From Fonticula-like sp. SCN 57-25 (taxonomy: Eukaryota): a stretch of DNA of 64,000 nucleotides. Positions 2,243 to 48,611 of this stretch are shown in pieces. The notes below the pieces were generated by a model. That model saw nothing but the letters and a program-made list of their open reading frames with translations. It was not told where the DNA came from and searched no databases. The position numbers were made by a program, and so were the translations under genes. The first letter of the stretch is position 1, and each line of letters begins with the position of its first letter. The stretch spans positions 1 to 64,000 of the forward strand of contig MEDX01000016.1 of the NCBI GenBank assembly GCA_001724245.1. The letters run 5' to 3'.

Positions 2243-2866
2243 TCATGAGGCGGGGACGGGCCGCGCGCGCGATTGAAGGCGCTTGGCAGGGACGTGCGCA
2301 AAGCGGCTAAAGAGGTTGTCGGCGGGGACATGCTCAATAGCCTTTGGTGGCTTCTCGTCCTCTGGCTCTTCTTTAGCGGGAGCGCCGCTGGGCAGCACAA
2401 AGCTTGTGAAGCGGCGCGCCGCCCGATCTTTGGCCTCGATATGCCCCGTGCCGTCGATCGCGACGCCCTCGCTCTGGAGAATCTTTCGTTTGCCGCAAAA
2501 CGCGTGCTCGTCCGTGTACATGACGCCGCCATATCCGCCGAGGAAAAAGGACCCGAGCACAACGCGGTGACAAGGGACCGGCAACGGCGCAAAAGGGTTT
2601 ACGCGGAGTGCGTTCCCGACGGCGCGCGCACCCTGCCCTCCCTTGCCCAGTACCGATGCCAGGTCGCCGTACGTGGCGAACGAGCCGGCGGGGATCTGCG
2701 CGCACAGGTCATACACCGCGTACTGAAACTCGGTGAGGGGCCTGCCCGTCTTTCTGTTGATATATGTCTTTCTCTCCTTCTCCTCTTGCGGGTACCACTT
2801 GACTTCGCCGCTCTCGTCGGGGATCCGGCACGGCGCCGTCGACGAGTGCCCGCAGGAGGCCGACAT
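2243..2866 (-). CDS. MGMT: O6-methylguanine-DNA methyltransferase (Ogt/MGMT), intronless
   Basis: TEFQYAVYDLCAQIPAGSFATYGDLA, ARAVGNAL and active-site VPCHRVV. Confidence 0.92.
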   Translation of the reverse strand: MSASCGHSSTAPCRIPDESGEVKWYPQEEKERKTYINRKTGRPLTEFQYAVYDLCAQIPAGSFATYGDLASVLGKGGQGARAVGNALRVNPFAPLPVPCHRVVLGSFFLGGYGGVMYTDEHAFCGKRKILQSEGVAIDGTGHIEAKDRAARRFTSFVLPSGAPAKEEPEDEKPPKAIEHVPADNLFSRFAHVPAKRLQSRARPVPAS

Positions 2867-2910
2867 GATGACTGAGTGGTAGCGCACCAGTGGCGCCACT
2901 CAAGTGACTC

Positions 2911-3290
2911 AATTTGGATCGCGATTGGATCGCGATTGAATTTCGCGTAACCGTCACAGCACGTTCGTTACAAAAGCTTTCAAATTTGAACTGTGCAGAC
3001 AGCGGCGATCCCGTGGACCCGTGGAACGGAGAGAAAGGAGCGTGTGCGTTGTACAACACGCGCGCTTTGTTCTTTTCGGAGGGTTCGAGTCACGCTGTGA
3101 GTGCGGAGCGGTGAAACTATGAGACCGTTGAAGCCAAAGGTACGCCCATTTTGAAAACTGCAAATTTGAATTTCGCGCCCTCGCGCCCACGGCGGGTTTT
3201 TTTTTGGTTTCGTGTTTGCTGTTCACCTGCTTTTCGGCTGTTTCCCACTGTTTGGCGCGAACGTGACGCACGGAGTGACAGATAACGGTC
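2911..3290. promoter_or_regulatory. Bidirectional MGMT/Rb promoter with candidate E2F, CHR and MYB sites
   Basis: TTTCGCGC 3171-3178; TTTGGCGCGAA 3251-3261; TTTGAA at 2985, 3150 and 3165; TAACGG 3283-3288; ACCGTTG 3124-3130. Confidence 0.55.
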
Positions 3291-3455
3291 CCTGTCATTC
3301 AATCGCTGAAACGGCCTGCGAACGCTGTAGCCATCGTGTTGCTCGTTTAGCAGTGTGTCAAAGCGTGTTTTCGGTTTCTTGCACTCTTTTCTCGTATTTT
3401 TCCCTGCCTTATTCGCCGGCTGGCGGTCGGGATTGTGGCCCCGTTTGGATGAATA

Positions 3456-6400
3456 ATGTCTCACGTTCCTCTGCTTCCAAAGCCTATGACGGATTTCTTC
3501 CCTGTTCGCAAAAGCGAATCCTCCCATGGCGCCGGTGATGCCGCGGGCAGTGGTGCCAAGGATGCACCTTTGTTGACTCCCGCGCCCGCCTCGCCGACAA
3601 AATCGGAGGCCGTTGACGCTCGCCGGTTTCACGCTGTGTGCGATGTGCTCAGCCTGGACGACCAGACCCGCAAGCTCGCCAATGATTTGCTCCACAGGTT
3701 TTCCCATTCGGAGCTGGGAAGGAGCACGCTTTCGGTAGCAAAGGTGGAGGCGTCGATGATGCTTGCCGCCATCTGGGTGGCCGGCCGCGTTGGGCCGCAG
3801 CTGGCCGCGGGGAGCTCGATGCCGCGCTACAATGGAATCACATTGACGCAGCTGATCAAGGAGACGGACTGCAATCTTTCTACCCAGGAAGCCTTTTCGT
3901 ATATCAAGACCTTTCTCACGAACGCCAACTATGACTCGATCCTCACAAAGGAGCGCGTCGAGAGCCTCCTCCAGACGGATCTCGTCCAGATGGAGCGCGC
4001 GTGCGAATCGCTGACGCTCGTTTTCCGCAAGTTCAAGGACTCCCATGCGCTCCTCTTTTCACGGCAACATGTGGGATCAAGGGACCTCATGTCGTTTGCC
4101 TGGTGTCTGTTTTTGAACGCCAAGGGTACGTGTCTCTATTCTATGTGAAAGTGTTTTACATGGCAAGTCGCCATGCTTTGTTCTTTTGTGTTACTTTTGC
4201 GTTCCTTTTCGTTCTTTTCTGTGGTTAACTGTGGCCTTGCCCTTTTTTGGTGGCCAATCGGCAACTTTTGAGATTGCCCCGTATTGTTTTCGCAACTTTT
4301 TCCCGCGCAATTTATGTGCCTTGCCTGTATCTTGTGGCTTGCTTGTGCTCGTCTCTTTTCCATCAAACTAATTTCCTTCTATAGAAACCCTTCTAGAGCG
4401 CTCTACGAGCTACAGCTTTAATGAGTTTATTCTTTGCCAATGTGCACTTTTGTTTACGTACCAGATGGCCGAGCCTGAGCAGGTCGTCCATATCAACTCG
4501 GTGTTGAGCCAGCTGCGGGCGGACATGCCCACTGCTTCGATACCCAAGGAAGCCAGCGACATGTTTGCGCTGCGCGTGTACTTGTGCGAGATGAACAGCG
4601 TTGACTTGACGACGTTCCGCGACGCCGAGTTGAGCCGCTTTGTTCCCTTTGTTCAGCAGCTTTTGCGGCAGGATCCGCGCGCGATGCGGTCGCTGCGCTA
4701 TGATTACACTGCCCCGATGAGCGACGGCGTTGTGCAGCTTCCGCACGTGCACCGCCTGCTGGACGCGTCGTCGGGCAACCTTCGGCTGAACCTCAATGAC
4801 CTGTCGGCGCGCTACGAGGAGCGCATCCGGACGTTTTCGGGCGAGATTGATGCGCGCTTCTTTGTGGAAGAGCACATTTCGCTGATGACCCCGCGCAAGA
4901 GCGGCGGCTGGCGGACGCCCGGCATCGGCAAGCTGCCTGCGGCGCGCAATCTCGCCAAGGCGTTTGACGACGGCAGCTATGTGACCTCGCCGATCAGCGC
5001 GCGCACGATGGTCGGCCCTCGCGTGAGCTCTGGCGACGAGGTGGCGGTGCTGCGTCAGGCGCTGTCGGACATGGACGCGCTGTGCTCTGCCGAGCCGTCG
5101 CCGTTCCTGATTGACCTGATGCACAGTGCCGGCCCCGACACGATGATCAACACGCTACAGCAGCTGGAGCACGCGCTGGTGCTGATCCCGCGCGACGTCA
5201 AGCAGTCGATGCCGCACTACGAGCGCTACCTGACGATGCTCTTTTACCGCACGCTGGACCTTGTCTGCAAGCGCGAGTCGGCGCGCCTGACCGACAAGCA
5301 GCCCGTGTTCAACCTCTTGCGCAACAACAAGTTTCACCGGTCGATGCTCATCTGCTGCTTCCAAATTGTCGGCCTGGCGCTGCTCCCTGCGCAGCGGCAG
5401 GTGCGCTTCTTGGACACGCTGCATCACATGGGCCTCAAGGCGTTTGACCTGGTGATCAATATCGAGACGTTTATCCGCGAGAATGTGCAGCAGCTGTCGC
5501 GCGCTGGCATCAAGCGCCTCAAGGAGATGGAGGAGCGCCTCTTGGAGACGGAAGTATGGAAGGACGACGACCCGCTGTACACTCTGATGGAGGCCGAGGC
5601 CGAGGCCCAGGCGCGGACGGGTGCTACGCGGCGGCCGCTTGCGTCCCTCACGGACGCTGTGCCGGCGGCGCCCGTTCGGCGGTCGGCGGCGCCCACCACG
5701 TCGTCAGCGCCTCCGATGGGGGCCGCCCAGCGCGCCGTGAGCGCCATCAGCTCGACGACGGGGATGCCGCGCGTCGCCTTTTTGGAGGACAACACGTGGG
5801 CGAGCAACCAACTTCAGCTGTTTTACCGCAAGCTGCTGCTCCTGTTGCACATGCGCCTCGCCTCGCTGTGCCGCGAGCTGAACGTGCCCGCGGAGAAGGA
5901 GAAGCGGATGTGGGACATGATTGTCGTGCTCGTCCAGCGCGAGGACCGCTTCCGCCTGTTCCGCCAGCGCCACATTGACCAGGCGATGATGTGTGCCATG
6001 TATGTTGTGTCAAAGCTGATGAATGGTGAGCACGTTGAGGGGTCGACGGCCGCCGTGGCCGCCGCCGCCGCTGTGGGCTCTCCTGACGTGACCGGCTCGT
6101 CGCCGCCCATGCAGCCGCGCTCGGCCAACGAGCCGCTGCTCTTCCGCGACATTATCAAGACGTACATGACGCAGCCGCAGTACCGGAAGGCGACGGTGTG
6201 CGAGGTGATTGGCGGCGATGGCGCCCCCTGCGACATTATTGCCTTTTACAACACTGTGTTTGTCGTATCGGCGGGCGCGCTCCTGCGCGACTTTAAGACG
6301 GTGCCGCCGTCGCCGCGGCCAGCGGTGCAGCCGCTGCCGCTCGCCTCGAGCCCGCTCGCGCAGCGCATCGTACTCCAGCAGAACATTAGCCTTTCGCCGA

Positions 6401-6810
6401 TGCACCCGGACCGGGCGCAGCAGCTGCAGCAAATGTCGCCGACGTTCCTGCAGACGGGGCTCACCAGCCCGTCCAACGGCTCCATGCTCAAGACGGCGGC
6501 GATTCGCGCGGCGATCGAGTCGGAGCGCGCGGCGCTGTACGGCCCGTCGTTCTCGCGCGCGTACGTGTTTGGCGAGTACTCGGGGGAGGGCGTCAAGGAG
6601 GGCGGCGAGGCGCCGCCGGCGCCCGCGGCGGTGGGGCGCGAGTCCAAGAGGAGATTAGACTTTGACAACCTCGGCTCAGAGGAGGACGACGAGGAGATGG
6701 AGATGGTCGTAAAAAGTAGGAGAACGGCCGCGGACGGCGCGGGACCGTCGTCGTCAGCCAACGATCGGTCAAGATCGCAGTCGCCGTCGGAAGACGAGAT
6801 GGAGAATTAA
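3456..6810 (+). CDS. RB1: Retinoblastoma-family pocket protein; one intron 4126-4384
   Basis: Pocket A (FHRSMLICCFQIV, AFDLVINIETFIR, IKRLKEMEERLLE) and pocket B (LFRQRHIDQAMMCAMYVVSK, FRDIIKTYMTQPQ, DIIAFYNTVF). Many S/T-P sites and a C-terminal KRRLDF. Confidence 0.93.
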
Positions 6811-7125
6811 GTAGTCGTCTCGTATTGGTTTATAGTGGTCTCGTGGGATTCCATCGAGATGAAATACGTGTGCGTTTTTAGTGGGAAAAGAGGCGCTGGT
6901 TGGCGGCTCGTTTGGTTTTCAGTTAGTGTATCCTTGTGCGTTCCAGCGTTTGCTTTGTGTTGTTTTTATGAAACATGAATATATACTCAATTCGACTTGT
7001 ACACTTTGGATATTTGCACGGCGCGGCAGCGCGCAGGCAAGTTGGCGTCAGATTCCACCCCAGATTCCCCTTTCAATATCACAGACCGACGCAGACCGAC
7101 GCAAACCGACTTGCTGTGGAGAGAC

Positions 7126-8187
7126 ATGTCGGGCACGGATGTGCCGCTGCGTGTCGCGTTCACGTCGGCGCTAAAGTCTTTTGAGAGTCTTGACGAGGGC
7201 TGCACTGGCGGTGACCATGCTGTTTATCAGGCCAAGCTGAAGGAGCTGATTGGAAAGCTCTTGCGGCTCAATGCTCGTGTTGGTGCTCAGCTGTTCTCGA
7301 GCAATGAGACGGCGGACGATGTCAGCACGGCTGATCTCAAGTATGCGCTCATTGGAGCTCTCATTGGCGACCTCTTTTCGCGCGTGTCAACGTCGGCCGC
7401 TGCTGACCGGTTAGCGGCGTTTGAGGTTGCCGAGCGTCAGCTGCTCGGTTTCCTTGGTCTTGTCGACCGTCTCCTCCTGCTCAGTGTGGAGGAGATGGAG
7501 ATGCTTCGCGTGCTTGAGAACCCAGTGATTGAGAATGGTGACCCTCTTCCTCCTCGTCCGCCGCCGACGAACCAGACGCGAGAGGCCAAAATTGCGCAGT
7601 TTCGCCGCGAGAAGGAGCTGAAGGAGCAGCTTTCGTCGCTCCGTGAGCAGCTGACGCGCGCTGGCAGCTCCGCCGATGACGATGACGACATTGACTGGGA
7701 GGGCGCCGATGACGAGCGCGCGCGCGAATACGTTACTGCTCTTATTCAGTCCTTTGTTATCCGCTCAATGAACCACATTACGATGATGCGCATGGAGCGC
7801 CCTCTTCTTCGGATGCGCGTCGCTGCCGAAGAGTCCGGCGAGGCGAGCCGGCCGCGCCCGGACCAGGATCAGCCTCCGCCCCGTGGCGGCCTCAAGACAA
7901 TTCACCTTCCCGACAAGCGCGCCCTGCTGCAGGCGGCGGTGTTCCAGCCGGGGCATAACTTGCCGACGATGAGCGTCGAGCAGTGGGCGGAGATCGAGAT
8001 GGCCAAGGGCAACTTTATCTCGGGCGGCGGTGCCGCTGGCGAGGAGGTCGCGAGGAGAAAGAAGGAGGAGGCGCATTACACCGAGAAGGAGCGGGACGTG
8101 GACGAGGCGACCATGAAGGCGAGGGAGAGCGACGAGCACAACGACGACAACAGGAGAGGAAGCGGAAACACGTACAACAGGAGCTGA
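7126..8187 (+). CDS. IGBP1: TAP42/alpha4 (PP2A-associated protein), intronless
   Basis: LFSSNETADDVSTADLKY, REAKIAQFRREKEL, VFQPGHNLPTMSVEQW and KARESDEHNDDNRRGSGN. Confidence 0.93.
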   Translation: MSGTDVPLRVAFTSALKSFESLDEGCTGGDHAVYQAKLKELIGKLLRLNARVGAQLFSSNETADDVSTADLKYALIGALIGDLFSRVSTSAAADRLAAFEVAERQLLGFLGLVDRLLLLSVEEMEMLRVLENPVIENGDPLPPRPPPTNQTREAKIAQFRREKELKEQLSSLREQLTRAGSSADDDDDIDWEGADDERAREYVTALIQSFVIRSMNHITMMRMERPLLRMRVAAEESGEASRPRPDQDQPPPRGGLKTIHLPDKRALLQAAVFQPGHNLPTMSVEQWAEIEMAKGNFISGGGAAGEEVARRKKEEAHYTEKERDVDEATMKARESDEHNDDNRRGSGNTYNRS

Positions 8188-8443
8188 GCGCCTGGTGCAT
8201 GATGACGTGATGACGTGGGAAAATGTAATAGAAGCATAGGAACGGTAAAGCCTTGTATCATTGCGCTTTTTTATGAATAAAAATGTCGAATTTGAGGTAT
8301 TAAATATGTACGCCGGCTTTGGACGGCCGGGGAGCAGGGGAATGGGGTTTGCCTAGGGATAAAAGGTAATCTTATTTGCAATAACAGAACAGAAAAGGGT
8401 ACAAAAGGTCTACAAGAACGTTTATTTTTCCCGCGTTCTTTTC

Positions 8444-9195
8444 TCAGAGCGTTTCCAAATTGGCCGCAATTGCCTTGAACTGCTTGGCGACATTCTGAAA
8501 ACATGTGTTAGGATGATCCTCACAATGCACAAGCGACGTACGTGGAACTCGGCGAGGGAAAGCTCAACGGGGTACGCGACGAGCGTGCCGTCGGGCTGCG
8601 ACACGTGAAACACCGCCGCGACGTAGGGGCTGGCGAGCGTCTGGCAGCTGTCGCTCTGCGTGGCGACGGCGAGCTTCCAGTCGAGCTTTGCGAGCTGACC
8701 GACGCTAAAGATCCTGCTGTGCTGGTTGGCGATGAGCGACGCGCCCTGCTCCGACCACACATGCTTGACGACGGGGACCACCGACGCGCCAAAGAGAGAC
8801 GTCGTCTTGATGGCCGCCACGAGATCCTCGACGGCGAGCTTGTTGAGGAGCGCACCGCGGAAGAGGTAAATAAGGCAATTGATGGCGCCCTGCGTCGCCT
8901 CAAGCGACTCATTCACGTCTACAAGGGAGAGCTTGCGCTGGAGCTCGTGAGCGTCAAGCTGGCCAACCTTGAATTCGAGAAACTTGATCACATCAAAGCA
9001 CTGCAGATGCCGGGTGTCAGGGAGCAAAGAAAAAAGAGCAACGAGGAAAGCCGCACTGTTTCGAGGAGAATATCTTGCGGGAAACGAGAAACAACCAATG
9101 AGGAACCGCGGAAACCTACCCAAACAACAGTTAGAACCGATGAACGCTGCGCTCTTTGCCGTACCCTCCGGGGCCTGCTGCAGGTACGCCGCCAT
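8444..9195 (-). CDS. COMMD6: COMM domain-containing protein 6, 3 introns, with N-terminal helical domain
   Basis: COMM domain VGQLAKLDWKLAVATQSDSCQTLASPYV...VELSLAEFH|NVAKQFKAIAANLETL. Confidence 0.88.
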
Positions 9196-9817
9196 CGCGC
9201 TGCTGCCGCTGCTCGAACAAACAACAACCCCAGACACCACCCCTGACAATTTGTTGGGCGTGATTCGGGGGCTGATTTTACAGGACACCATGCAGCCTGC
9301 GATTCCGCATGCGATATTCGCATGTCGTATGACGTCATTGGTCTCACCCGATTGGTGGAAAGGTGGGGACGTGGCACTTTTTATTCCACGTTAGTAAGCG
9401 GCGCGCCAGTTTCGTTGTCCTTTACGCCTCCTCCGCTTCGCCTCTGGTCCATCCCGGCCCGGCGTCGGTTTTGTTGATCCGCTTTCCCGGAAGACAGCTT
9501 GCGCTCTCTCTCTCTCGTCTGCCACACTAAAGCACACGAGAAAAAAAGTGACGCCTTTGGTTAAGCGTCTCTTGTCTACCTGAATATTTGATTGCCAATC
9601 CCGGGATTTTTGTGTTTTTCGCGCGGAGTTCTACCCGCGCGCGTTTTCTGCACAACGGGGTCGCGCCGTCTCGTTCGCTCTAACCTGCGGGGGGCTCACT
9701 GTCGGTTGATCTATCAAGTTCTGCGAGAATAAGCTACTTGCCTGACCGGTTGGGTTTCTTTTTCTCCGCAATCTTTCCTTTGTTCCGTCGCAATCCCTGT
9801 GTGTGTATTCTTTAAAG

Positions 9818-11122
9818 ATGCACTCCCTTCTTGTTGATGCGCAGCCGTTTCCCGGTCCGCCCTCGTCGGCGGTTCCGTCTTTCCCGGACGCGTATGATAT
9901 CCACCACCACCATGCCGCCGCTGCCTTTGGCGGCGTGATGCCCGGCGAGTACCTTGGCGAGAGCCTGCGTGATTCCATGCACGCATATGGTACATCTTCG
10001 TCGGAGCACAGCCCTTCTCTTTCGCCTTCGCTTTCCCCCGAGTCCAGCGAGATGAGCGAGTTGTCGCTCGTTTCGCCGAACCACGGAGACGGCGCTTGGG
10101 AGCGCCCCTCGTGGGAGGCGACTCCTTATGATAGCTCGTCTGACGACGGGAGCGAGGCTGCGTACCAGCCCTCGACTTCCTCTACTGCCGCGTTCACGAG
10201 CAGCTATGTGCCGGTTCCTGCCGTTGCGGCGGACGACCCGACGCGCCCGTCCAAGGTGGCGGCCACGTCGGGCGAGACCACCCCCGCACCTGCGGCCGGC
10301 ACTAGCTCGCGCCCTCGCCGCGCGGCCGCCGCGCCTCCGCCTGTAAGCCAGCCGGAGAAGCGCGAGGCCAAGGTGGCCGAGGTGCGCCCGTCGCGCAATC
10401 TTGTGCGCGCTGGATCCCTCGAGGTGACCGAGGAAGACCTCCTCGAGCTCGACATTGATAAGCTGCAGCGCCTCGCGGGGCAGCGCTTCTCGTCCTCGGA
10501 CAAGAAGGAGCTCAAGCGTCTCCGTCGCAAGCTCAAGAACAAGCTCAGCGCGGCAAACAGCCGCCTCAAGCGTCGCGAGTACATGGTTGACCTCGAGGAG
10601 AAGCAGGACAACCTTGCCGACGAGCTCGAGTTCCTCAGACGCGAGAACGCGGAGCTCAAGCAGGAGGTGATGCTCCTGCGCGCCGAGAAGCAGCAGCAGA
10701 GCACTCTTGCCTTTGCGCCTGCGAGCCGCCCGTCGGCCGTCCTCTTTGTCCTCCTCCTCTCCTTTGGCCTCTTCTTCCAGGGCATCGCGCCGCTGGCTAG
10801 CCTCTTGGGCGCCAGTTCGGCCGTCGTCCCGTCGATCACCGGCGCGCCGCTCGGTGCGCCCAGCTACGACCCGGCCGCCGTGTTCGCCACCTCGCGCAGG
10901 CTGCTCTTTGCCCACGAGGAACACGAAGGAAGCCACGTCGATTTTGCGGGAAGTCAGGTCGAGTTTACCATGCCAAAGGCGGTGCCGGCTGGAATTTTTG
11001 ATACCGAGGAAGAAAACGAGACGAGCAGCGTGAGCTGGGGCGCCGACGAGGCCGTGCGCCCGTTCGTGCTCCACGTGGATGCCGCTGGCATGGATCACGT
11101 CAAGCAGGAAATCGTCGCCTAA
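9818..11122 (+). CDS. Membrane-tethered bZIP transcription factor, CREB3/OASIS/ATF6 type
   Basis: Basic region KELKRLRRKLKNKLSAANSRLKRREY, leucine zipper, transmembrane segment AVLFVLLLSFGLFF and luminal SRRLL (site-1 protease RxxL). Confidence 0.88.
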   Translation: MHSLLVDAQPFPGPPSSAVPSFPDAYDIHHHHAAAAFGGVMPGEYLGESLRDSMHAYGTSSSEHSPSLSPSLSPESSEMSELSLVSPNHGDGAWERPSWEATPYDSSSDDGSEAAYQPSTSSTAAFTSSYVPVPAVAADDPTRPSKVAATSGETTPAPAAGTSSRPRRAAAAPPPVSQPEKREAKVAEVRPSRNLVRAGSLEVTEEDLLELDIDKLQRLAGQRFSSSDKKELKRLRRKLKNKLSAANSRLKRREYMVDLEEKQDNLADELEFLRRENAELKQEVMLLRAEKQQQSTLAFAPASRPSAVLFVLLLSFGLFFQGIAPLASLLGASSAVVPSITGAPLGAPSYDPAAVFATSRRLLFAHEEHEGSHVDFAGSQVEFTMPKAVPAGIFDTEEENETSSVSWGADEAVRPFVLHVDAAGMDHVKQEIVA

Positions 11123-19135: not shown

Positions 19136-20391
19136 ATGCCCCCGAACGCGGCCGAGGCCACCGCTGCGTCGTCGTCGCCGGCGCTGCGCGCCAGCAAGCT
19201 GCGCGCCAGCACGTCCAAGAAGGATGCCGAGCTTCGTGCGTTTTGCGCTTTTTGTTGACGGTATTGCTGACGACGATGTTATAAACAGGCCAGCCGATCC
19301 TCCCCACGCAGGTGCCGCCGTTCACCCTGTCGGACCTCAAGAACGCCATCCCGGCGCACTGCTTTGAGCCGACGCTCCTAGAGTCGTACTCTCACCTTGC
19401 GTGGAACATTGTCCAGTGCGCCATGCTGGCGGCGGCCTTTGTGTGGCTCGACAGCCGCCTGCCGTGGGCCCTCTGGATCCCGGCGTACCTGCTGTACACG
19501 TGGGTGCAGGGTGTCCTGTTCACGGGCGTGTGGGTCATTGGCCACGAGTGCGGGCACGGTGGCTTTGCCAAGAGCAAGATGGTTAACGATGTCACTGGCT
19601 ACTTTTTGCACACGATGCTGTACGTGCCGTACTTTTCGTGGCAGCGCTCGCACTCGAACCACCACCACTACACCAACAACCTTGCCAAGGACGAAGTCTT
19701 TGTTCCCCCGAAGGCGTGCAAGGAGACTGCTGCCAAGGAGAAGCAGAACCCGTCGCACAAGCGCAACCCGATCGATGTCGTCTTCAACCTCACGCTCATG
19801 CTCACCTTTGGCTGGCCTCTGTACCTGATCAAGAACGCCACCGGCCACGCGTCCGACGAGACCATGTCGCACTTTTTGCCGTCGTCGCCCATCTTCAAGC
19901 CCAAGGACTACTACAAGGTTGTCTTTAGCACGGCGAGCCTCTTCATGTGGACCGCCGTCCTCGTGTACCTCGGCACCTTTGTCGGCCACCTCCAGCTCTT
20001 CAAGCTGTACGTCCCTGCGCTTTTCGTCAACAACGCGTACCTCGTCGCCATCACCTTTTTGCAGCACACCGACTCGAAGCTGCCCCACTACGATGACGAG
20101 GACTGGACGTGGCTCCGCGGCGCCCTCTGCACCGTCGACCGCACCATGGGCCGCTGGCTCGACACCAAGCTCCACTACATCCACTCGACGCACGTGTGCC
20201 ACCACGTCTTTTCGCGCATTCCCTTTTACCGCGCCGAGGAGGCCACCCGCGCCATGATCCCCGTGCTCGGCGAGTACTACATCAAGGATGACTCGAGCTT
20301 CCTCAAGACGCTCTACCTCAACTTCCGCGACTGCAACTACCTCCAGGACACCAAGGGTGTTGCGTGGTGGCTCGAGGCGCTCAGCGATTAG
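19136..20391 (+). CDS. FAD2: Delta-12/omega-6 fatty acid desaturase, 1 intron
   Basis: PPFTLSDLKNAIPAHCFE, His boxes HECGH, HSNHH and HVCHH, ITFLQHT and RGALCTVDR. Confidence 0.93.
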
Positions 20392-25600: not shown

Positions 25601-28600
25601 ACGCGCTTCAGGCCTACCTGACCAATGATCGTGCGTCATATATTGTTTTTTCTGCATTGTCTAACAAATTCCTGTAGTTCGCGTCCAGCAGGTGCTCTCG
25701 CGTCTGCAGTCGCTCTGCGACTCGCTGTTTTACCCGCGCGATGATCGCTCTGCGCCTTCCGCGCCGCAGCTGAAAGAGTCGCTCGAGGCTGCGCTTGCGG
25801 ACCTCGAGCAGGACAACAAGACGCACCCGGTGGCGCTGCTCGTCGCGTTTGTGCGGCAGCTGCTCTCTGAGATGGAGGCGCTGTCGCGCGACGCGGACGG
25901 CCGCGTCCTCGCGGAGGTGCTCAAAGACGGTCCGACAAGGGCGCTCACGCGGCTTGTCTTTGAAGGCAAGGGATACGCGGCGGCAGAGCAATACGGTACG
26001 AAGCTGCGGACGGACATGACGAAATCTGACGCTGCTCCGCCTTTAGCATCGCGCCTGAACATTGACATTGTGTCGATTATTGTGCGCGCGTGCTCGACCA
26101 AGCCCGCGCTGGCAGGGCCGGCGGCGGAACCCGCGCAGCCCTCGACGCCCATCCACGCTATGCTCGGCGAGATGCTGGCGGCCCTCGCACTGAATGTTAT
26201 TGGTAGCTCAGAGATGGACGAGGAGGACGCGTGGATGTGCGCGCCTCACGAGGCCATCCTTGACGCAGGCAACGCGACCGAGATGAAGGCGGTTGTGGCG
26301 GCGTGCGAGGAAGCAGTTGCCGCGGCCGAGGTACCCCGCCTGCCGTTGCAGGAGCGGCTCGCGTTCCTGCTTAACTTGCACAACCTGATGATGCTGCGCG
26401 CGGCGGTGACAAGCGACTTGCCCGCTGGTACGTTCTTTGACGATTCTTGTTTTAATTATCTGACTCCTTTTCAGTCGAGTCGCTTGATGGCCTGAATGGT
26501 CACAGGGAGCGCGTCAGCATGGTGGTCGGCGACCTTGGCAAGGTGACCGCTCACGACATTGCAAAGATGGCGGCGGAGACTGCGCGCGGTGCGTCCAATA
26601 TTTAGCGTGCCGCGTGTGCTGATATGTCGCTTGTAGGTCTGGAAAAGGAGAAAACGAGCATTCCGCTTGCCGCCCTGCTGCAGTTTGGTCTTGCGTGGTG
26701 CACCGAGAGCGTCGGGACGGTCATGGTGTTTAACGCCGAGAATCTTGTGGCCGACCTCGAGTCCCTTGTCGACCGCCTCGTGCTCGACGAGGTCGTCGTT
26801 CTGGTGCGCTGAGCTTGTTTGCCGACGCATTATCTTACATTTTGTTTAGGATGACTCGGTTGAGGTCCCCGAGGCACTTTTGTTTGCCCTTGGTCACTCT
26901 GACGCGCCTCGCGGCGATTCCGAGGTGCTTCAGCTGATTGGCTCGCGCCTTTCCAAGGACCTTTCTGACCGCTCCGTGTCGGTCCTGCCGCTGTCGTGGT
27001 CGCCGCTTGTGCGCCTTCCGTCCGCGCTGCGCCACCTGTCGTCCATTTGCCGCACTGGCACCCCTCCCGCCAGCACGCCGTCAAAGGCGTCCCCGCGGCT
27101 GACGTCGTACAAGCTGACCGAGGATGTGCTCGAGTACGTGCAGGCGCACTCCCCGTCGATGGGCGCGCTGCTGTGCCTTGCACACGCGCCTGGCGGCTCG
27201 CTCGCCAGCGGTACGTCGTACGTCGAGCATGCTCTTTCACAGACGAGCGCCGCTGCGCCATCGCTGCGCCGCCTCATCGAGCTGCGTGCGCGCGCCATCC
27301 GCGACTACGCCGTCAACGTCATTGGCGGCGGGCAGGGCGCCGACGCCGCCGCCAGTGAGGAGCCGGCCGCGACGCTGCGCCAGACCGACCGCAACGCGTC
27401 GCACGTGTCGCTCGCGTCGCTCGAGGCGGCGGCAGCGGCGGGGTCTTCTACTTCGTCGTCGCCGGCCATGGCGGCTCTGCAGCTTCAGACGTCGCCCTCG
27501 ACCGCGTCGCTCTTTAGCAACGAGGCGGCGGGTCCCACGTGGGTGCCCGACAAGAGCTACTGGCAGTACGACAATGACGTGCCCACATGCATGTTGTGCG
27601 ACGCCAAGTTTTCGCTCTTTAACCGCCGCCACCACTGCCGCGCGTGCGGCAAGGTCGTCTGCAACGACTGCTCGCCGTTCCGCAGCGTCGTGCCGGGGCT
27701 CGAAGGTGAGGGCCCGCAGCGCGTGTGCCGCGTGTGCAACGGTTCGATTGCGAGTGGCGCGGGGCAGAAGCCGCCGGCGCCGCCCGCGCAGCAGCCACAG
27801 CAGCCGCAGCAGGTTGCCTCGGCGCCGTCCGTCCCGCCATCACCCAAAAAGGCCGAGACGAAGCGCTCAAAGCAGCCGCCAGCCCCCGCGGCTCCGGCGC
27901 CGCCGCCCTTTGTGTGGCAAGAGCACATTTCAGACATTGTTTCGATCTTGCCGAACGTTCTTGATGTCGAGATGACGCACGCCGACTCTGAGGTGATTTA
28001 CAACCGCATCTTCCAGTCGCTTCTGTCGTCCAACAAGCCCGCAGAAGCGCTGAAGCTTGCTGACCGTCACCTTTCGTCGCCGCCGCCCGACAGCCTTCTT
28101 GTTGACCTTGCTGACAAGCAGCCGCGCGCCGCCTCGCCGTACCTTGTGCGCATCCGCGACAAGCAGGTGCTTGGCGGCCTCGTGCTGCAGTGGCTGCCCG
28201 TGTGGCCGCTCGAAGTGTGCGTCGACCTTCTGTTCCTCTGCCGCTGCCACCCCTCGGACGATGCCGAGCAGAACGCCGAGATCGAGCGCACCTACCAGCG
28301 CTTCAAACTCTTTGGCGAGATTCTTCGGCTGGACGCGACGTGGAAGCAGTGGCGCGACCTCGAGATGGCGTGTAAGGAAGACCCCGAGCTCGTCATCCGC
28401 GACTTTCTCGCGCGGACGCAGCGATTCGACCTCGCGATGGACCTGCGCGTCGCGCTCAACCTGCCGAGCAGCCTCGTGCGGGAGATTGACAGCAGCCACC
28501 TCGAGCGCCTTCTCGAGGACGGCGACACAATCGCTGCTTTCCGAAAGGTGGAGGCGCTTGGCGATGCCGCGGTCGAGATTTGCGAAGAGCTCTTTTACAA

Positions 28601-31600
28601 GAACCAAAAGTACCATGTCAAGCTCTTTGTGGTCAGCTACCTGCTCAACAATCTGCCGCACCTCCTCACGCTCGAGACGTACAACAGGCTTTACTCGGAA
28701 GAGCTCGGTATCAAGCTCCTCGTGCGCATGCCAAAGGACGAGCACCGCGTACGCTGAAGGATGGAATCAAATGTAACATGCTAATTTTTGTGTGTTTGTA
28801 GCGCTGCCAGCACGTGGCCGGGTACCCGAACTTGATCATTGAGACGCTGCTCATGAGCGGCAACATTTCTCTTGCCGACACGCTCATGCAAGAATTCCAC
28901 GAGCTCAGGTCGGACAACCTGATCGTCACATACGCGCGCAAGGGTGCGCACCTTTTTGCGTCATTTTGCTATTTATTTACCTGTTTGTGCAGCGATCCAT
29001 ATTCGCAATCGTGCAGAGCGCATGAAGCTCAAGCGTCAGCGTACGTCACATTTTGACCACTGTATCTTGCTCATTTTTGATATCTTTTGCTGCAGATACG
29101 AGCATTGACCACAATATTCCGCCGCTCTCGTCTTCGGTTTCAAACATGTCTGCGTCGTCGCTCCCCCCGCCATCTCCCGTCACGTCTCAGCCCGACGCCC
29201 CGCCCAAGCTCACCGGCGACGCCGAGACTGACAGCCGCCTTCGCGAGGCCTTTATGTTTGCCGACGCCCCAAATGTGTCGCTCTGCAAGCGCATCCTCGC
29301 CCTGTGCTCGCACCCGCACCGCATCGGCCAGGCGTGCCTCACCTTTTGCGACCAAATGTCGCAAAAGCTGTCGAGCCCCGACTATGACGGCGAGATTGAC
29401 GCGATTGTCGGCATCATCCAGCAGCTTCTCTTCCACGCCAAAATGTCGTACCTGCGCATGAGCGACGGCAACAGCAGCCTCGTCGCGCTGTGCGACACGT
29501 ACATTACGCACATGGAAGTGCTGCGGATGCTCGTCAGCGAGCGCTGCAGCGCATCGGTGACGCTCGCGGACCTCAACGAGCCCGCCAAGACGCGCGTCCT
29601 GCGCGACAACCTCATCAAGGACGACCGGTTTAGGCTCGCGCTCGAGGTCGCGTCAAAGTGCCGCATCGAGACGGAGCCAGTGTGGGCGGTTTGGGGGATC
29701 CAAAAGCTGCACTTGGGGCAGTACGAGGAGGCAAGGGAAAAGTTTAAGAATTGCCTCGGTACGTTGGGTGATGAGATGATATATGGATAGATGTGGATGG
29801 ATAGTGTGATAGATAGATGTGTATGTGTGTTGATAAAGAGTTTGATGGTGTAGATAGATGTTTATTGTGCAAAAGTGGTCTATATCATGTGCCTTTCAAA
29901 TATGCTAATATGCTTGCAGTTCCCGTGGATGACGCGCGTGGGACTGGAGCGAATCTGCGTCTGATTGGCGATGTGCTGCTCGCGCTTGAGGAAGGCGCGC
30001 CATTGAGCGTCCCGCCGGTCAAGGACATGCAGATGCGCCTCGCCCGCTTCTACCAGACGTACTCGAAGAAGAGCTGTACGCGAAAGTGGCGATTTTTTTG
30101 GTTTCTGACCACTTTTTGATTGCAGCCGAGGGCATTTTCAGCGCTTTTCTGCCGTCTAACGCGAGCGAATACGCCGACGAGATGGAAGCGTGCGTCACTT
30201 TCCTTATCAACTTTTCTTCTGACATGGTTTTAGTATTCGCAAGCGCAATGCAGCGCAGTTCCCGACGCTGCCCGCCGTGAGCGACGTGTCGTCCCTCGAC
30301 AAGGAGCGCCTTTCTCAGTGCGAGTGGTACCTTCGGACGTACGCGCCGCCTCGTCACCTCGTTGCGTTCTACGTCAAGCACGGCTTATTTGGGCTTGCGT
30401 GCACGACGGCCGCCGAGAACGATATTGGCGCAGTCGCGTTTATGGAGGACCTGCTGACGCCGTGTATGGCGCGTGGGCAGCTCGCGCGTCTCCGCATCGA
30501 CATGCGCGAACTCAGCGGTGCGCATTAATTTAATTGCGGTATTCCTTGTAGATATTATGTCTTTTGTGTGGGTATATTTTCATATTTGTATCATTATGTG
30601 TCATTTTGTGGCTACTTTCATGTCATTTTTGGTCATGTTCTCACACCTTTTCAGATGACAAGGTGGCGCGCCTGAATGGGTACCTGCTGTCGGCCTGCCG
30701 CCACTTTAACCAGGCTGGGCAAATGCGCCAGCTGTACGTGCTGCAAGTCTTTATGCAGGACCACATGCGCGCCGGCTTGACGTGCATCAAGTTGTTCCTC
30801 AAGCGCGTCAGCGAAGTTACCGACGTCGAGGACGCCGTCGGGTACCTCATCAAGGCAAAGGCGCACCTCGACGATGCAATGCGGCTGACGCCGTCGGCCG
30901 TGAATGCTTATCCAAAGGCGTCGGGGCGCGACGATGGCAAGGATCTCGGCTCGCTCGATAGCATTGGAGCGGCGCTCAGCGAAAAGGACGCCATGAGATA
31001 CATGACGGTGCGACATTTTGTCATTTTAGTTGTGTTTTGCGTTTTATTGGTATCACTTTTGCATCTTTTTGCATCATTTTTGCATCATTTCTCTATCATT
31101 TCTCTATTTTTCTCCGTTTTCTCTTTAACTAAACCGCCTTTTCAGACGGTGAATCTTCAGCTGGAGACCTGCCAGGTGTTTGCTCGCGAGCCCAAGGCAC
31201 CCGCTGCTTCCTCTGCGTCTGCCCCCCCGGCCGGCGGCGAAAAGCCCGAAGCGCAAGGGCGAAATCTGCGTGCGCCTTCTTCTTCTCGACGACTTTGACC
31301 TCGCCTTCCGCATCATCCAAGAGTTCCGCCTGCCCGGCGTGGACATTTACGAGCAGGCCATCAAGGCGATGGCGCGCGCCAAGGCGGTCCCGCGCGTCGA
31401 CAACCTGCTCAGGAACATTAAGGGAGTCGTCTCGAACGAGGACTGGGACCGCGTCCTCGACGTGTGCGTCAACGTGTTTGCGCGCGAGAATCAGGATGCA
31501 AAGGTGCGACTCAAAAGTGGCCGAGATCTGATGACCATAATCTGACGACTAAAATCTGTTTTAGAATGCCGACAAGTATATTGCGATGATTATGGACGTG

Positions 31601-42075: not shown

Positions 42076-43045
42076 ATGCTCGCGTTGATGCTGCTGCTGC
42101 TGCCCGTGGCCGCGACAGCCGGCCTGGCGCTGCTGGGTAATGCGCGTCTCCAGGCGTTCAGGAGGCGCGCGCCGCGTAACCCGGCGCTGACGATGAAGCT
42201 CAGCGATGGCCGTACGCTGGCGTACGCGACGTACGGCGAGGAGCCGGCAAAGGCGGACAAGGTCGTGTTTTACCTGCACGGTCTCATGGGATCCCGCCTC
42301 GAATTCTCGGGGATGCGGAAGGAGTTTGACGGAAGGTACACGCGTCTTTTGTTGTGACAACGTGCTCATGAATGCTTGCAGGAGCGTCTCGTTTGTGACT
42401 ATTGATCGCCCCGGCTATGGCCTGTCGACGATGCAGCCCGGCCGGACGTACCTTGGCTTCGCCGACGATGTGCTGGCGCTCGCCGACCACCTCCAAGTCA
42501 AGCGCTTCTACATGACCGGGTGGTCGAGCGGCGGCTGCTACGCGCTTGCGTGTGCCGCCAAGATCCCCAGCAGCCGCCTGGCGGGCGTCCTTACGATCGC
42601 CTCTGATCCGCCGTGGGGAAGCGTCCCGCCACAGATGCGCGTGTCAATCCAGCGCGTCGCCTTTTTCGGGTACACTTCTCTGCGCTCTTTTCTCCCCGCT
42701 ATCCTCGGCCTTTTGCTCCGCCTGCTCGTTGCGTTTGGTGGCGCGCCCAAGCTCCAGGAGCGGATCATGGAGGCCAACCGTCAGACGATCCGCGCCACCG
42801 TCCAGGAGATGATCATCGAGCGCAACCCGTGGGACTTCAAGCTCGAGGACATCAAGATCCCCGTGTACATCTGGCACGGTACAACGGACGTCATGGTGCC
42901 TGTCGCGTCTGCCGACTACCTCGCTGAGCGCATCCCCGGCTCGACCAAGCGCATCCTCGAGGGGAAGGGGCACATGATCGTGTCGTCCCACTGGGCCGAG
43001 ATGGTCAATTTCCTTCTGGACCAGCCGGAGAAGAGCAAGTTGTAA
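42076..43045 (+). CDS. Alpha/beta hydrolase fold protein, 1 intron, C-terminal SKL
   Basis: LSDGRTLAYATYG, YLHGLMGSR, IDRPGYGLS, GWSSGG nucleophile elbow, WHGTTDVMVP and GKGH. Confidence 0.9.
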
Positions 43046-44718: not shown

Positions 44719-47700
44719 CTAGGCCTCGAAAGTGTTCTCGGTCTCAAGCTGGTTGGGGCCGTCGGGAAGGAGGCTGATGCGCGACTGGTTCTCCTGCTTG
44801 AGCTTGGTGACCATAGCCTTGGCCTCGGCCAGCCTGCTTGACCTAAAGTTGTCGCTGATGTTCATCTGCGTCACGAGGCGCGGCGGCGTGTTGGTGCGCG
44901 GCCGCAGCGGCGAGTCGAGCGACTCGGCCGATGACAGTGCGTCGTCGCTGCCGTCGGCGAGCTGCGTCACAGAGATGGAAAGCTTCATCATGTCGGGCGT
45001 CACGCGGCGGCGCTTGGTGCCATTTGCAGAGTTTGACACAAGCGCAAGATCCAGCTTGGACACATTGGCGACGCCGACGACGGCCGCCGAGCTCGTGCGG
45101 CGGCGCTCATTAAACACCTCTGAAGAGTGCTCGATAAGGCGCTGAACGAGCGGCGCACGCGTCTCTACAACCGCCGCAATGTCCGCGCGGCCCTCGTTGT
45201 CGCCGCCGAGGGAATCCGCCGCGCTCGGCATCAGGAGAGGCGTAAAGATCGTGTCGAGCGTGCCAATCAAAACACCGCTGCGAGGCGTATTAACAGCGCT
45301 AAAAAGACAGAGAGTCAGAAAGGAAGGAAAAAAGCGCATCAAACGCACCGCTTCCAGTGCTCGACAAGGAACTTTAGAAGCGTGTACGGGAACGAGTCGA
45401 GCGATTCGATGGCTCCGGCGAGAAGGCGCCCGATATCGGCCGGGTGCTCCCAGTCTGCGAGACACGTAAGCAACAAAAGTCACAGCAAGAACAAGGACGC
45501 ACTGCACGCCTGCACGACGCGGCTCTGAAGGCCCGTCGGGATGATGGGCGCAGGGAGCGCCTCAATAAGGCGCTGCAGGAGCCCAGTCAGCACCGCGTGG
45601 TCGCACGTGATAAGCTCAGAGCGGTTGCAGATCTCTTCGCTGGCAGCGGGCACCTTGGCATCTGCAAAAAAACATTAGCATCAATGCAAGCAGACGAGGG
45701 AAACATACCAATTTGGGCCATGAGGCGGCGATGGGCCGACGAGCGGCGCGACTCGATGGCATACAGGTGGGTATTGGAAAGGCCTATCATTTTGTCAGCC
45801 ACACGCGCATACAAGCACTCTTTTTCGCACCCTTTTCCTCGATGGCCGAGATGAGGGTGACAAACTTGCGGCCTTCCATGGTCTCGCGAAGGATCGTCTC
45901 GTCGCTCTTGGCCTGCGGCGTCGAGTTGGAGTCGGCCACCGTGTGACGGCGAATCAGCGAGTTGGCCGCCTCGAGGCGGCGCGTGCCAGACGGGGTGCTC
46001 GAGGCGTACACCGAAACGGCGCGGCGCACAGAGCTCGGCGTCCCGCGCGACTCAATCATGCTCTAAACTGGGATTAGCATGTGACGTATCCAAGGAAAGT
46101 TAAACGTACGCGGAAGAGATCGCCGCGCGACGAGCTGCGACTCGGCGTCATGGTGCCGCCGGTCAAACGCGAGGCCAATTTGGACTACAAAGAAAGGTCA
46201 GACTCACAATATGTAAAGCATAAAGAATGCGCGTACGCGGCTGATTTGGAGAATGTAGGGCAGCAGCATCGATGTGATGCGGCCACCGTACAGGTTGTCG
46301 GGGTACGTCTGGAGGCGGCACACCTCAACGGCCATCACTTCATGTCCAGCAAGCACTAGCACAAGCAAAAGTCAGCCATCCATTAACACACACATACAAA
46401 AGACGTACACTTGGCCATGAGAAGGGCGCCAAACTCGGACGTGCTGCACGCCTCAAAGTCACCAAAGAGCGAGCCGCCAAAGACAGGCACATTGTCGCGC
46501 GTGCGCAGGCAGCACCGGAAGCCGGTGGGCGTGATCTGCACCAGGGCGACCAGGTAATAGTTCTTCAGGCGAGGCGGGATGGCCAGCTTGCTCGGGTCGG
46601 CACCCGCAAAGACGATGGCAGACATGCGCGTGTCGGGCAGGCAAAGCTCAGTCTTGGACATCTTGCTGACGCGGTGCACGTTAATATTGATGCGGCGGCC
46701 ATTGTCCTCGCGGGCGACAGACGCGTCGGTGCGCTTGCGCTGGAAGTACGCACCGCGCAGCTTCTCCATAAAGTCAGCGGCAACGTCGCCGCCGAGGATA
46801 AAAGTGCGACGGCGGCCGTTCTTCTCGCCAGAGCCGTCAAACTTGCCCTTGGCGTCCATAAAGTCAACCGTGAGCAGGATCTGTCCAAGGGGCAGGCTCA
46901 GTGACGAAAACTCAATCTGCTGCAGGTCGGTGAGGTGCTTCTTTTCATACGCCTTCTTGTTGGACGCGAGCTTGCGCTTGGTGGCGCTGACCTTTTTGGC
47001 AAACATCAAGTGGTCGTTGAAGAGGAAAAGAGCGCCGCCGTTGCGCACGCTCTGCGAGCACTCGTCCACCTCGTTCACCTCAAACTTGCCGAGGAAGGTG
47101 CGGGACGCGCTCACGAGCCAGTTCGGGACATCCGACACAGAGTTGAACACCTCAAAGAGCAGCGCGCGCGAATCGGCGGCCGCCTGCTCCACATTAATGA
47201 ACGACGCAATCTTGGTCATCTCGGTGTACGCCTCAAGGAGCATAGCATAGCTCGAGTGCGACGGGTGCATGTTGGAAAGCATGTCGCGGACGAGAATGAC
47301 GTAGCGCGGCAGGCGCTGCACGGGCTCGATCAGCAGGTCCGTCAGGTTCTTGCGGAACGAGTCGGGGCGCATGCGGATGCTGTCGAGCATGGCGGCGAAC
47401 ACGCGGCCCGACCGGCGCGTGTGGATGGTCTCTGTCGCCGTCTGGTAGTAGCTGACAAAGACCTTGTAGTGGTGAAAGTTGCGAATGTGCTTTACGAGCA
47501 CCGCCTCGACCGTCTGCGGCGCAGCCTGCGCCTCCTTGGCCTTGGCCGCCGCGCGGCCCGACTTGACAACAGTCGTCTGAGGAGCAGGGGCGGGCGCCGG
47601 CGCCATAACCGCCTGAAGCTCAGCGAGGAACGCCTTGTTCACTTCATAGATTTTGGGAAGGCCGCAAAACATGTTCTGCGCCTCGGGGAGCGAAATCGCC

Positions 47701-48611
47701 GACGGGTTGGCACGAGCAAGCTGCTCGATATCGCAGGAAATGCTCATGAGGCCGCCGAGGCACGCGACATAATGCTCTTCCGTGCTGAGCAGCTCCTTGT
47801 ACAGGTTCGCGAGCTTTTCATTGTTGGTGCTCCGCGCGGGCGCCACGGTCGAGTCGGCGAGGCCGCTCGACGACGTCTGGTGGTCAAGGAACCGCCCCGC
47901 GGTCTTGACGATCGACTCGTCGCTGTCAAGAATAAAGGCGTCAACCTCAGCCGAGCCAGCCAGCTAGCACACAGGTAAGCTCTACGTTATATAAAGTCAA
48001 TATTCGCACCATGTACTCGCGATCGAGCTCGTAGAGGCGGGCGCACAGCTGGCCGACGTGGAGCGGTGTGAGCTGCAAGAGAAGCGACGAGGTCTCGATG
48101 GTGAGCCACTGGGTGCAGCCATCCATGCGCGCGTAGACGTCAAAGGCAGTGGTGAGCATCTTGTTGAGCGACTCCTTGCGCTTGCGCAGGGCGCCGTTCG
48201 AGTAATACGCGTTCACAGACACAACGTGCTTGCCGGTGCCGCTGCGCACAACGACGACGGCGGGCGTCGACGCATTAATCTCCTCTGCGGGAACGGTAAA
48301 GACAATCATTTTGAGGCGCTCGTCGTTGAAATAGTAGTGAACGTGCTCTGATGGCGCACATCAGTACATTTGCGGAAAGGACAGGAGAATCACGAGACGT
48401 ACGGTCGCATGCGCCGGCCATCTCGCAAGGAAGCGGCTCGACGGTGGGCGCAGTTGCCGTCGTGGGCGAACCGGCCTGCGCGCCCGTCTTATCATACTTG
48501 AACCCGTACTGGTCAAGCGTGCTCATGATGTCCGCCTACCTCCATGTCAGATTGGCCGCACAAGGGACAAGTGAATGATCGTACATGAAAGCGGCCCTGA
48601 GCACCAGCCAT
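44719..48611 (-). CDS. DH-PH Rho guanine nucleotide exchange factor with a Bud3/Gef2-like N-terminal region, about 10 introns
   Basis: DH domain ELLSTEEHYV...LTDLLIEPVQRLPRYVILV; PH domain LFLFNDHLMFAKK; low-complexity S/T-P-rich C-terminus. Confidence 0.85.

Follow-up and report, generated by a model that had tools for sequence, protein, structure and literature searches.

The 64,000-nucleotide (nt) stretch of DNA analysed here, called the window, corresponds to positions 1 to 64,000 of contig MEDX01000016.1 of Fonticula-like sp. SCN 57-25 (assembly GCA_001724245.1). Its forward strand codes for a retinoblastoma (Rb) homologue, or pocket protein, whose amino terminus carries a candidate PIP degron, a signal built on the PCNA-interacting peptide (PIP) box and read by the CRL4-Cdt2 ubiquitin ligase. 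The open reading frames (ORFs) 3456–4148 and 4465–6810 of the + strand belong to this single gene. Exon 1 (3456–4125), counted from the first in-frame ATG, codes for a disordered tail of 48 residues and for the first cyclin-fold lobe of the Rb N-domain (RbN). Exon 2 (4385–6810, stop codon included) codes for the remainder of RbN, pockets A and B and the carboxyl-terminal region. The intron between them (4126–4384, +; 259 nt) has a GTACGT donor, a CTAAT-like branch and a TATAG acceptor. Splicing from the G/GTACGT donor at 4125/4126 to the acceptor ending at 4384 restores the frame, and the exons joined by script give 3096 nt with one stop, at the end, coding for 1031 amino acids (aa). This 4125/4385 junction is the one found to unite both open frames, alternatives not having been compared exhaustively.

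The domains of the protein are defined by Pfam profiles. DUF3452, the Rb N-domain, is found in exon 1 at residues 125–226 (E 1.2e-6, 28.7 bits for a cut-off of 26.3), while exon 2 matches RB_A (E 5.6e-26, 92.1 bits for a cut-off of 25) and RB_B (E 1.2e-17, 64.6 bits for a cut-off of 26.9), the latter over profile positions 2–71 of 144 only. Pattern matching alone gives 14 S/T-P sites in the 1031 aa, of which two also have K/R at +3; by the same means an RxL-like motif, KRRLDF, is found close to the acidic carboxyl terminus. In the DNA of this region (6700–6810) the KRRLDF motif, of the cyclin-docking RxL type, precedes an acidic run and a SQSPSEDE tail, an arrangement similar to that of the cyclin-docking region in animal Rb. 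Judged by its sequence, the host protein is a pocket protein of ordinary appearance equipped with the usual apparatus for control by cyclin-dependent kinases (CDKs). Pocket proteins are the textbook brake of the cell cycle, switched off by CDK phosphorylation and on again by phosphatases. The protein shares with the canonical members (RB, p107, p130 and their homologues) the RbN, A and B domains, multiple S/T-P sites and a carboxyl-terminal RxL-like motif, and differs from them in its terminal tail, where none of the 152 homologues examined carries a PIP-degron string.

The candidate degron, PKPMTDFFPVRK, as read from the DNA and its translation, occupies positions 3477–3512 (+), which are residues 8–19 counted from the ATG at 3456. 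Its codons, CCA AAG CCT ATG ACG GAT TTC TTC CCT GTT CGC AAA, translate as P-K-P-M-T-D-F-F-P-V-R-K. An earlier note on this DNA had given this reading at these residues and positions and assigned it to an Rb homologue; coordinates and translation are correct, and the matches to DUF3452, RB_A and RB_B confirm the assignment. The string has Met at PIP position 4, Thr-Asp at positions 5 and 6 (T12, D13), Phe-Phe at positions 7 and 8, and basic residues at +3 (Arg18) and +4 (Lys19). Published work describes the canonical PIP box as having an aliphatic residue at position 4 and aromatic residues at positions 7 and 8 (PMC6881253). In a PIP degron the PIP box has Thr-Asp at positions 5 and 6 and there is a basic residue at +4, the +3 residue being also of importance in human cells, and it is the combination of Thr-Asp with basic +3/+4 residues that separates degrons from plain PIP boxes (PMC8871960).

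The location of the motif was assessed in an AlphaFold2 model of the Rb protein computed from a 39-row alignment (mean predicted local distance difference test score, pLDDT, of 79.8; predicted template modelling score, pTM, of 0.71). Residues 1–27 and 30–36 have pLDDT values below 50, and the whole of residues 1–48 is coil, as the earlier note had supposed in calling the amino terminus apparently disordered. The first RbN helix spans residues 49–64 and opens, at about residue 49–50, an all-helical, cyclin-like RbN lobe with pLDDT values of 87–96. A model from the single sequence also shows coil at residues 1–48 but is poor (mean pLDDT 42.7). The motif lies about 30 residues before the first helix and, being part of a tail modelled as disordered, it should be accessible. 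The tail also has a TP site and an SPTK site. A search of PDB sequences with the first 30 residues of Rb returned one irrelevant match only (bS21c, E 0.11). Two other readings of the Phe-Phe pair, as a Rev1-interacting region (RIR) and as a MLH1-interacting peptide (MIP), were set aside on the usual rules for these motifs: RIR disfavours a Pro following Phe-Phe and MIP requires a basic-Ser-basic prefix.

The string is rare. With residue frequencies taken from the composition of this Rb protein itself, the pattern [ILMV]-T-D-[FY]-[FY]-x3-[KR] is expected 3.1e-7 times per position, or 3.2e-4 times per 1031-aa protein; the expectation drops to 3.5e-5 per protein when a basic +3 residue is included and is smaller still for the 48-residue tail alone. 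The Rb motif is the only match in the six-frame ORFs of the window (76,784 residues). The 152 Rb homologues (118,670 residues) likewise contain a single match, in P0111 (residue 92). It belongs to the string QISITDFFKKAK at P0111 residues 89–100, a complete PIP-degron consensus that includes Gln at position 1, and P0099 has a similar string, NLPLTEFFTKSK, at its residues 91–102. Both align to residues 143–151 of the Rb studied here, inside RbN helix 143–156 (block pLDDT 95). As modelled, the P0111 string is thus a folded element and not a degron, a look-alike of structural origin, liable to be flagged in error by motif scans. Its position in a folded helix implies that PIP-degron-like strings can arise in pocket proteins for structural reasons.

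This look-alike bears directly on the possibility that the amino-terminal motif is translated yet inert, a chance match or a sequence with another role, in a protein controlled by CDK phosphorylation only. A full-consensus string that sits in a folded helix illustrates that such matches need not be degrons, the usual CDK apparatus is in place (14 S/T-P sites, KRRLDF), the tails of the 152 homologues are devoid of the motif, and the scanning of many windows should by itself yield some rare motifs whose presence in cell-cycle proteins is fortuitous. The chance rate argues in the other direction, being merely 3.2e-4 per protein and lower for the 48-residue tail, as does the simultaneous match of five specific positions and a basic +3 residue in an accessible tail at the terminus of the protein, comparable to that of Cdt1. 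An inert motif is possible, if short of probable, and only slightly less likely than a working degron.

The observations that weigh against a working degron concern the motif itself, its conservation, the pathway and, as detailed further below, the start of translation. The Gln at PIP position 1 is missing and Pro8 is found in its place. The earlier note had listed this Gln as the single PIP-degron element absent from the string, which agrees with the published definition (PMC8871960). Position 1 lacks Gln in 34% of the 77 confirmed PCNA-binding motifs of a curated set, and Pro is tolerated there (PMC6881253), so that Gln1 is not strictly defining. The motif definition was moreover relaxed, by dropping the Gln, after the sequence had been seen; the true chance rate is therefore several-fold above the figures given above, though for any one protein it stays low.

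Conservation gives no support either. An exhaustive HMMER search with Rb yielded 491 matches, the closest of which, the protein itself left aside, have 28–38% identity (best non-self E 6.5e-36, at 28%). The motif is found in no tail among the 152 distant Rb homologues, and the amino-terminal tails of homologues do not align (mean occupancy of 1.2 of 38 rows over residues 11–20 in alignment A1); there is consequently no sign that the motif is conserved. A word-index protein search for closer relatives returned the ORFs of the window only (one match among 8000 scored candidates for exon 2 and one among 736 for exon 1), and none of 88 pattern matches in metagenome contigs is a relative. The named top Rb matches come from an aphelid, a blastocladiomycete, an amoebozoan and a sponge. 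The best named matches of the neighbouring TAP42 protein are from fungi. They do not exceed 33% identity, which shows how isolated this genome is. An Atlas search with the neighbouring FtsH fragment matched bacterial FtsH clusters only and gives no taxonomic hint. To judge from the Rb and TAP42 similarities, the organism probably stands on a deep and so far unsampled branch, close to fungi and other opisthokonts.

As for the pathway, a scan of 19 further long ORFs in the window revealed no gene for PCNA, for Cdt2 or another WD40 receptor, for DDB1 or for a cullin. In Schizosaccharomyces pombe CRL4-Cdt2 degrades Pxd1, Cdt1 and Spd1 via PIP degrons (PMC7394458), for which reason the ligase could exist near this lineage.

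The remaining points against the degron lie at the 5' end of the gene, where the question is whether the full motif is made. If translation started at Met11 (3486–3488, +), or if the 5' gene model were wrong, the protein would begin with M-T-D-F-F or T-D-F-F and would not have a competent PIP box. Met11 stands at PIP position 4, so that a start there would delete motif positions 1–3 and, after removal of the Met, probably position 4 too. Its context is cctATGa, with C at −3, while Met1 (3456) has A at −3; a purine at −3 is also present in four other starts of the window that were judged well supported (TAP42, bZIP, UBR4, MGMT-like). An in-frame TGA at 3450–3452, directly upstream of Met1, makes the latter the first in-frame ATG. 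The database ORF for exon 1 begins at Met11 (P0153, 220 aa), a start that looks like the product of a prokaryote-style gene caller and carries no weight.

A shortened protein is favoured by two features of the sequence around Met1. An out-of-frame ATG found 7 nt 5' of it may divert ribosomes from Met1; its context is weak (tggATGa, T at −3) and its ORF (3449–3538, +; 29 codons) runs across the motif to end past Met11. Codons 2–10 are noncoding-like, with a log-odds score of −3.49 for coding versus noncoding codon usage that places them in the bottom 3% of coding windows, and they are pyrimidine-rich like flanking untranslated sequence. The weak score is not particular to these codons: the whole tail to about position 3650, motif included, also scores weakly, which limits what the codon-usage test of codons 2–10 can say. 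Note that the 3449–3538 ORF could act as a brake on Rb translation.

The pyrimidine stretch is equally well explained by a second gene model that keeps the motif whole, in which it is the tract of a 3' splice site. This speculative model has a candidate coding mini-exon at 3119–3139 (+), made of an ATG with A at −3 and six further codons (MRPLKPK) and ending at a G/GTACGC donor, followed by an equally speculative first intron of 343 nt (3140–3482, +). Of the eight AG sites in 3180–3520, that at 3481–3482 alone leads on into the Rb frame; the pyrimidine tract before it is also the richest (0.75). The product would have MRPLKPK joined directly to PMTDFFPVRK, leaving the 12-mer unchanged: CCAAAG is found both at the end of the mini-exon and at the end of the intron, and Pro-Lys thus precedes PMTDFF whether translation starts at Met1 or in the mini-exon. 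The donor belongs to a class that is enriched in the window, where GGTACGY is found 28 times for 10.4 expected (20 forward-strand and 8 reverse-strand sites; none of 100 shuffles reaches 28). The sites include those at 145, 763, 949, 3139 and 4125, and the splice donors that could be checked, in the Rb and FtsH genes, carry the word. The introns of the FtsH gene are 53–56 nt long; their branch points read CTAAC or CTGAC and their acceptors TAG. The weak points of the mini-exon model are its AAG acceptor, the others seen being TAG or CAG, the lack of a clean CTRAC branch, and an intron that, at 343 nt, is longer than the others seen (53–259 nt).

A 224-nt contig from an insect gut metagenome run is identical to positions 3217–3440; nothing else in 2500–7200 is covered, and the run was judged probably to be DNA. 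The identity implies that the organism or a very close strain occurs in that insect gut sample. The contig ends 16 nt before Met1 and has no bearing on the start codon or on splicing. Taking the Met1 start and the mini-exon model jointly, it is probable that the full motif is translated. Initiation at Met11 is unlikely, and the same is to be said of the broader proposition that a complete PIP box is never produced.

If, as we infer, the full motif is translated, and if Cdt2 is present in this organism, the following chain of events is proposed. The Rb tail would dock on PCNA that has been loaded on DNA, be it in S phase or in the course of repair synthesis, with Met4, Phe7 and Phe8 (PIP numbering) inserted in the hydrophobic pocket of the clamp; the Thr-Asp pair would make the contact stronger. 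The basic residues Arg+3 and Lys+4 would next form a surface for CRL4-Cdt2, which would ubiquitylate Rb and cause its removal by the proteasome. Such destruction would be added on top of ordinary CDK phosphorylation, for which Rb also has the sites. The case for a degron rests on the rarity of the string, on its position in a terminal disordered tail and on the nature of lineage-specific CRL4-Cdt2 substrates, which are typically regulators of the cell cycle or of DNA metabolism, as in Drosophila E2f1. On these grounds it is possible, if still well short of probable, that the Rb tail carries a working PCNA-dependent PIP degron. The fuller proposal, according to which Rb itself is in this lineage a replication-coupled substrate of CRL4-Cdt2 that is destroyed when PCNA is loaded at the first origins, is put forward a little more hesitantly still. 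The motif is accordingly classified as a candidate PIP degron and not as a demonstrated member of the class.

Binding to PCNA might also occur for its own sake. The motif would then act as a tether that brings Rb and its co-repressors to sites of replication or repair, or that competes with other PCNA clients, and no degradation would follow. The ligands of PCNA grade without a break from PIP boxes to degrons (PMC6881253), and mutation of the +4 basic residue alone in S. pombe Pxd1 only impedes its loss, the same being reported there for Xic1 and Set8 (PMC7394458); the outcome is thus not fixed by sequence alone. The presence of Thr-Asp together with basic residues at +3 and +4 is, on the other hand, the very combination that distinguishes degrons (PMC8871960), and a role restricted to tethering appears improbable.

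Comparison of the candidate degron with established systems places it close to the animal consensus. Set8 and Xenopus Xic1 have strings of the form Thr-Asp-aromatic-aromatic-Pro-x-basic-basic, which are mentioned as background and were not used as evidence. The degron peptide of human Cdt1, MEQRRVTDFFARRR, has its PIP box at residues 3–10 and resembles the Rb motif in its extreme amino-terminal position, in a disordered tail, and in its T-D-F-F core followed by basic +3 and +4 residues (PMC6312923). They differ at positions 1 and 4, occupied by Gln and Val in Cdt1 and by Pro and Met in this Rb (PMC6312923), and in the nature of the host, a licensing factor whose degron has a shown function in one case and a transcriptional repressor with a candidate motif in the other. 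The degron peptide of human p21 (CDKN1A), RRQTSMTDFYHSKR (PMC6312923, PMC6881253), shares the M-T-D-F run and the basic +3/+4 residues, and its host is likewise a brake of the G1/S transition, one that is removed in S phase. The p21 degron differs in being carboxyl-terminal, in having Gln1 and in its strongly basic flanks (PMC6312923, PMC6881253), whereas this Rb has a single Lys in the upstream flank, or three basic residues there if the mini-exon is used. The Cdt1 peptide binds at about 7 uM and that of p21 at about 40 nM (PMC6312923).

The nearest analogue within the same pathway is Drosophila E2f1, in the literature consulted the single component of the Rb/E2F pathway known to be destroyed by CRL4-Cdt2 and PCNA in S phase; there an activator is removed, here it would be a repressor (PMC3420931). 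The logic is opposite, since loss of E2f1 switches E2F output off whereas loss of Rb would keep repression off. The S. pombe substrates Pxd1, Cdt1 and Spd1 show that the pathway operates in fungi (PMC7394458), and the nearest named relatives of this Rb and of TAP42 are mainly from fungi and their allies; the difference is that the motif of this Rb is close to the animal consensus. The titles and abstracts of the searched literature, which left most subscription journals and all supplements outside, contain no case of a pocket protein that is a PCNA-dependent substrate of CRL4-Cdt2. Dikarya are not known to possess Rb.

The window has a high GC content (55–64%) and short spliceosomal introns. 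Upstream of Rb, on the − strand, a gene for a protein with the DNA-binding domain of 6-O-methylguanine DNA methyltransferase (2243–2866; E 8.4e-20, PCHR motif) is organised head-to-head with the Rb gene, the promoter region being common to both. Two E2F-like sites, TTTCGCGC (3171–3178, +) and TTTGGCGC (3251–3258, +), are found upstream of the Rb coding start within this 590-bp divergent promoter region and are only suggestive. They were rejected as evidence of autoregulation because the 8-mer is too common, with 33 found in comparison to 24.4 expected and three of 100 shuffles reaching 33. Downstream of Rb, Pfam matches identify TAP42 (7126–8187), a COMM domain (8422–9291, −), a bZIP protein (9818–11122), a fatty-acid desaturase (19423–20391), a FYVE protein (27159–28757), an alpha/beta hydrolase (42206–43045) and a RhoGEF with an ECT2-type PH domain (46383–47747, −). 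At the right end of the window, an ORF for a UBR-box protein (55593–57887, +; 764 aa) is followed by an ORF with a UBR4-like domain (58175–64000, +; more than 1940 aa) that runs off the window. These two ORFs may be parts of one giant gene for a UBR4-type N-recognin.

If the motif is inert, it would provide a calibrated case of chance producing a near-perfect short motif in a believable host protein. If it is a working degron, Rb would have a second, irreversible route of inactivation, and the repression of E2F targets would be tied directly to DNA synthesis and repair. The G1/S switch of this organism would be made irreversible through proteolysis, beyond what phosphorylation alone achieves, and Rb would have to be resynthesised in every cycle, a resynthesis that the two upstream E2F-like sites might drive. 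The Rb/E2F module would then have been wired to CRL4-Cdt2 more than once and at different nodes, through E2f1 in flies and through Rb in this lineage.

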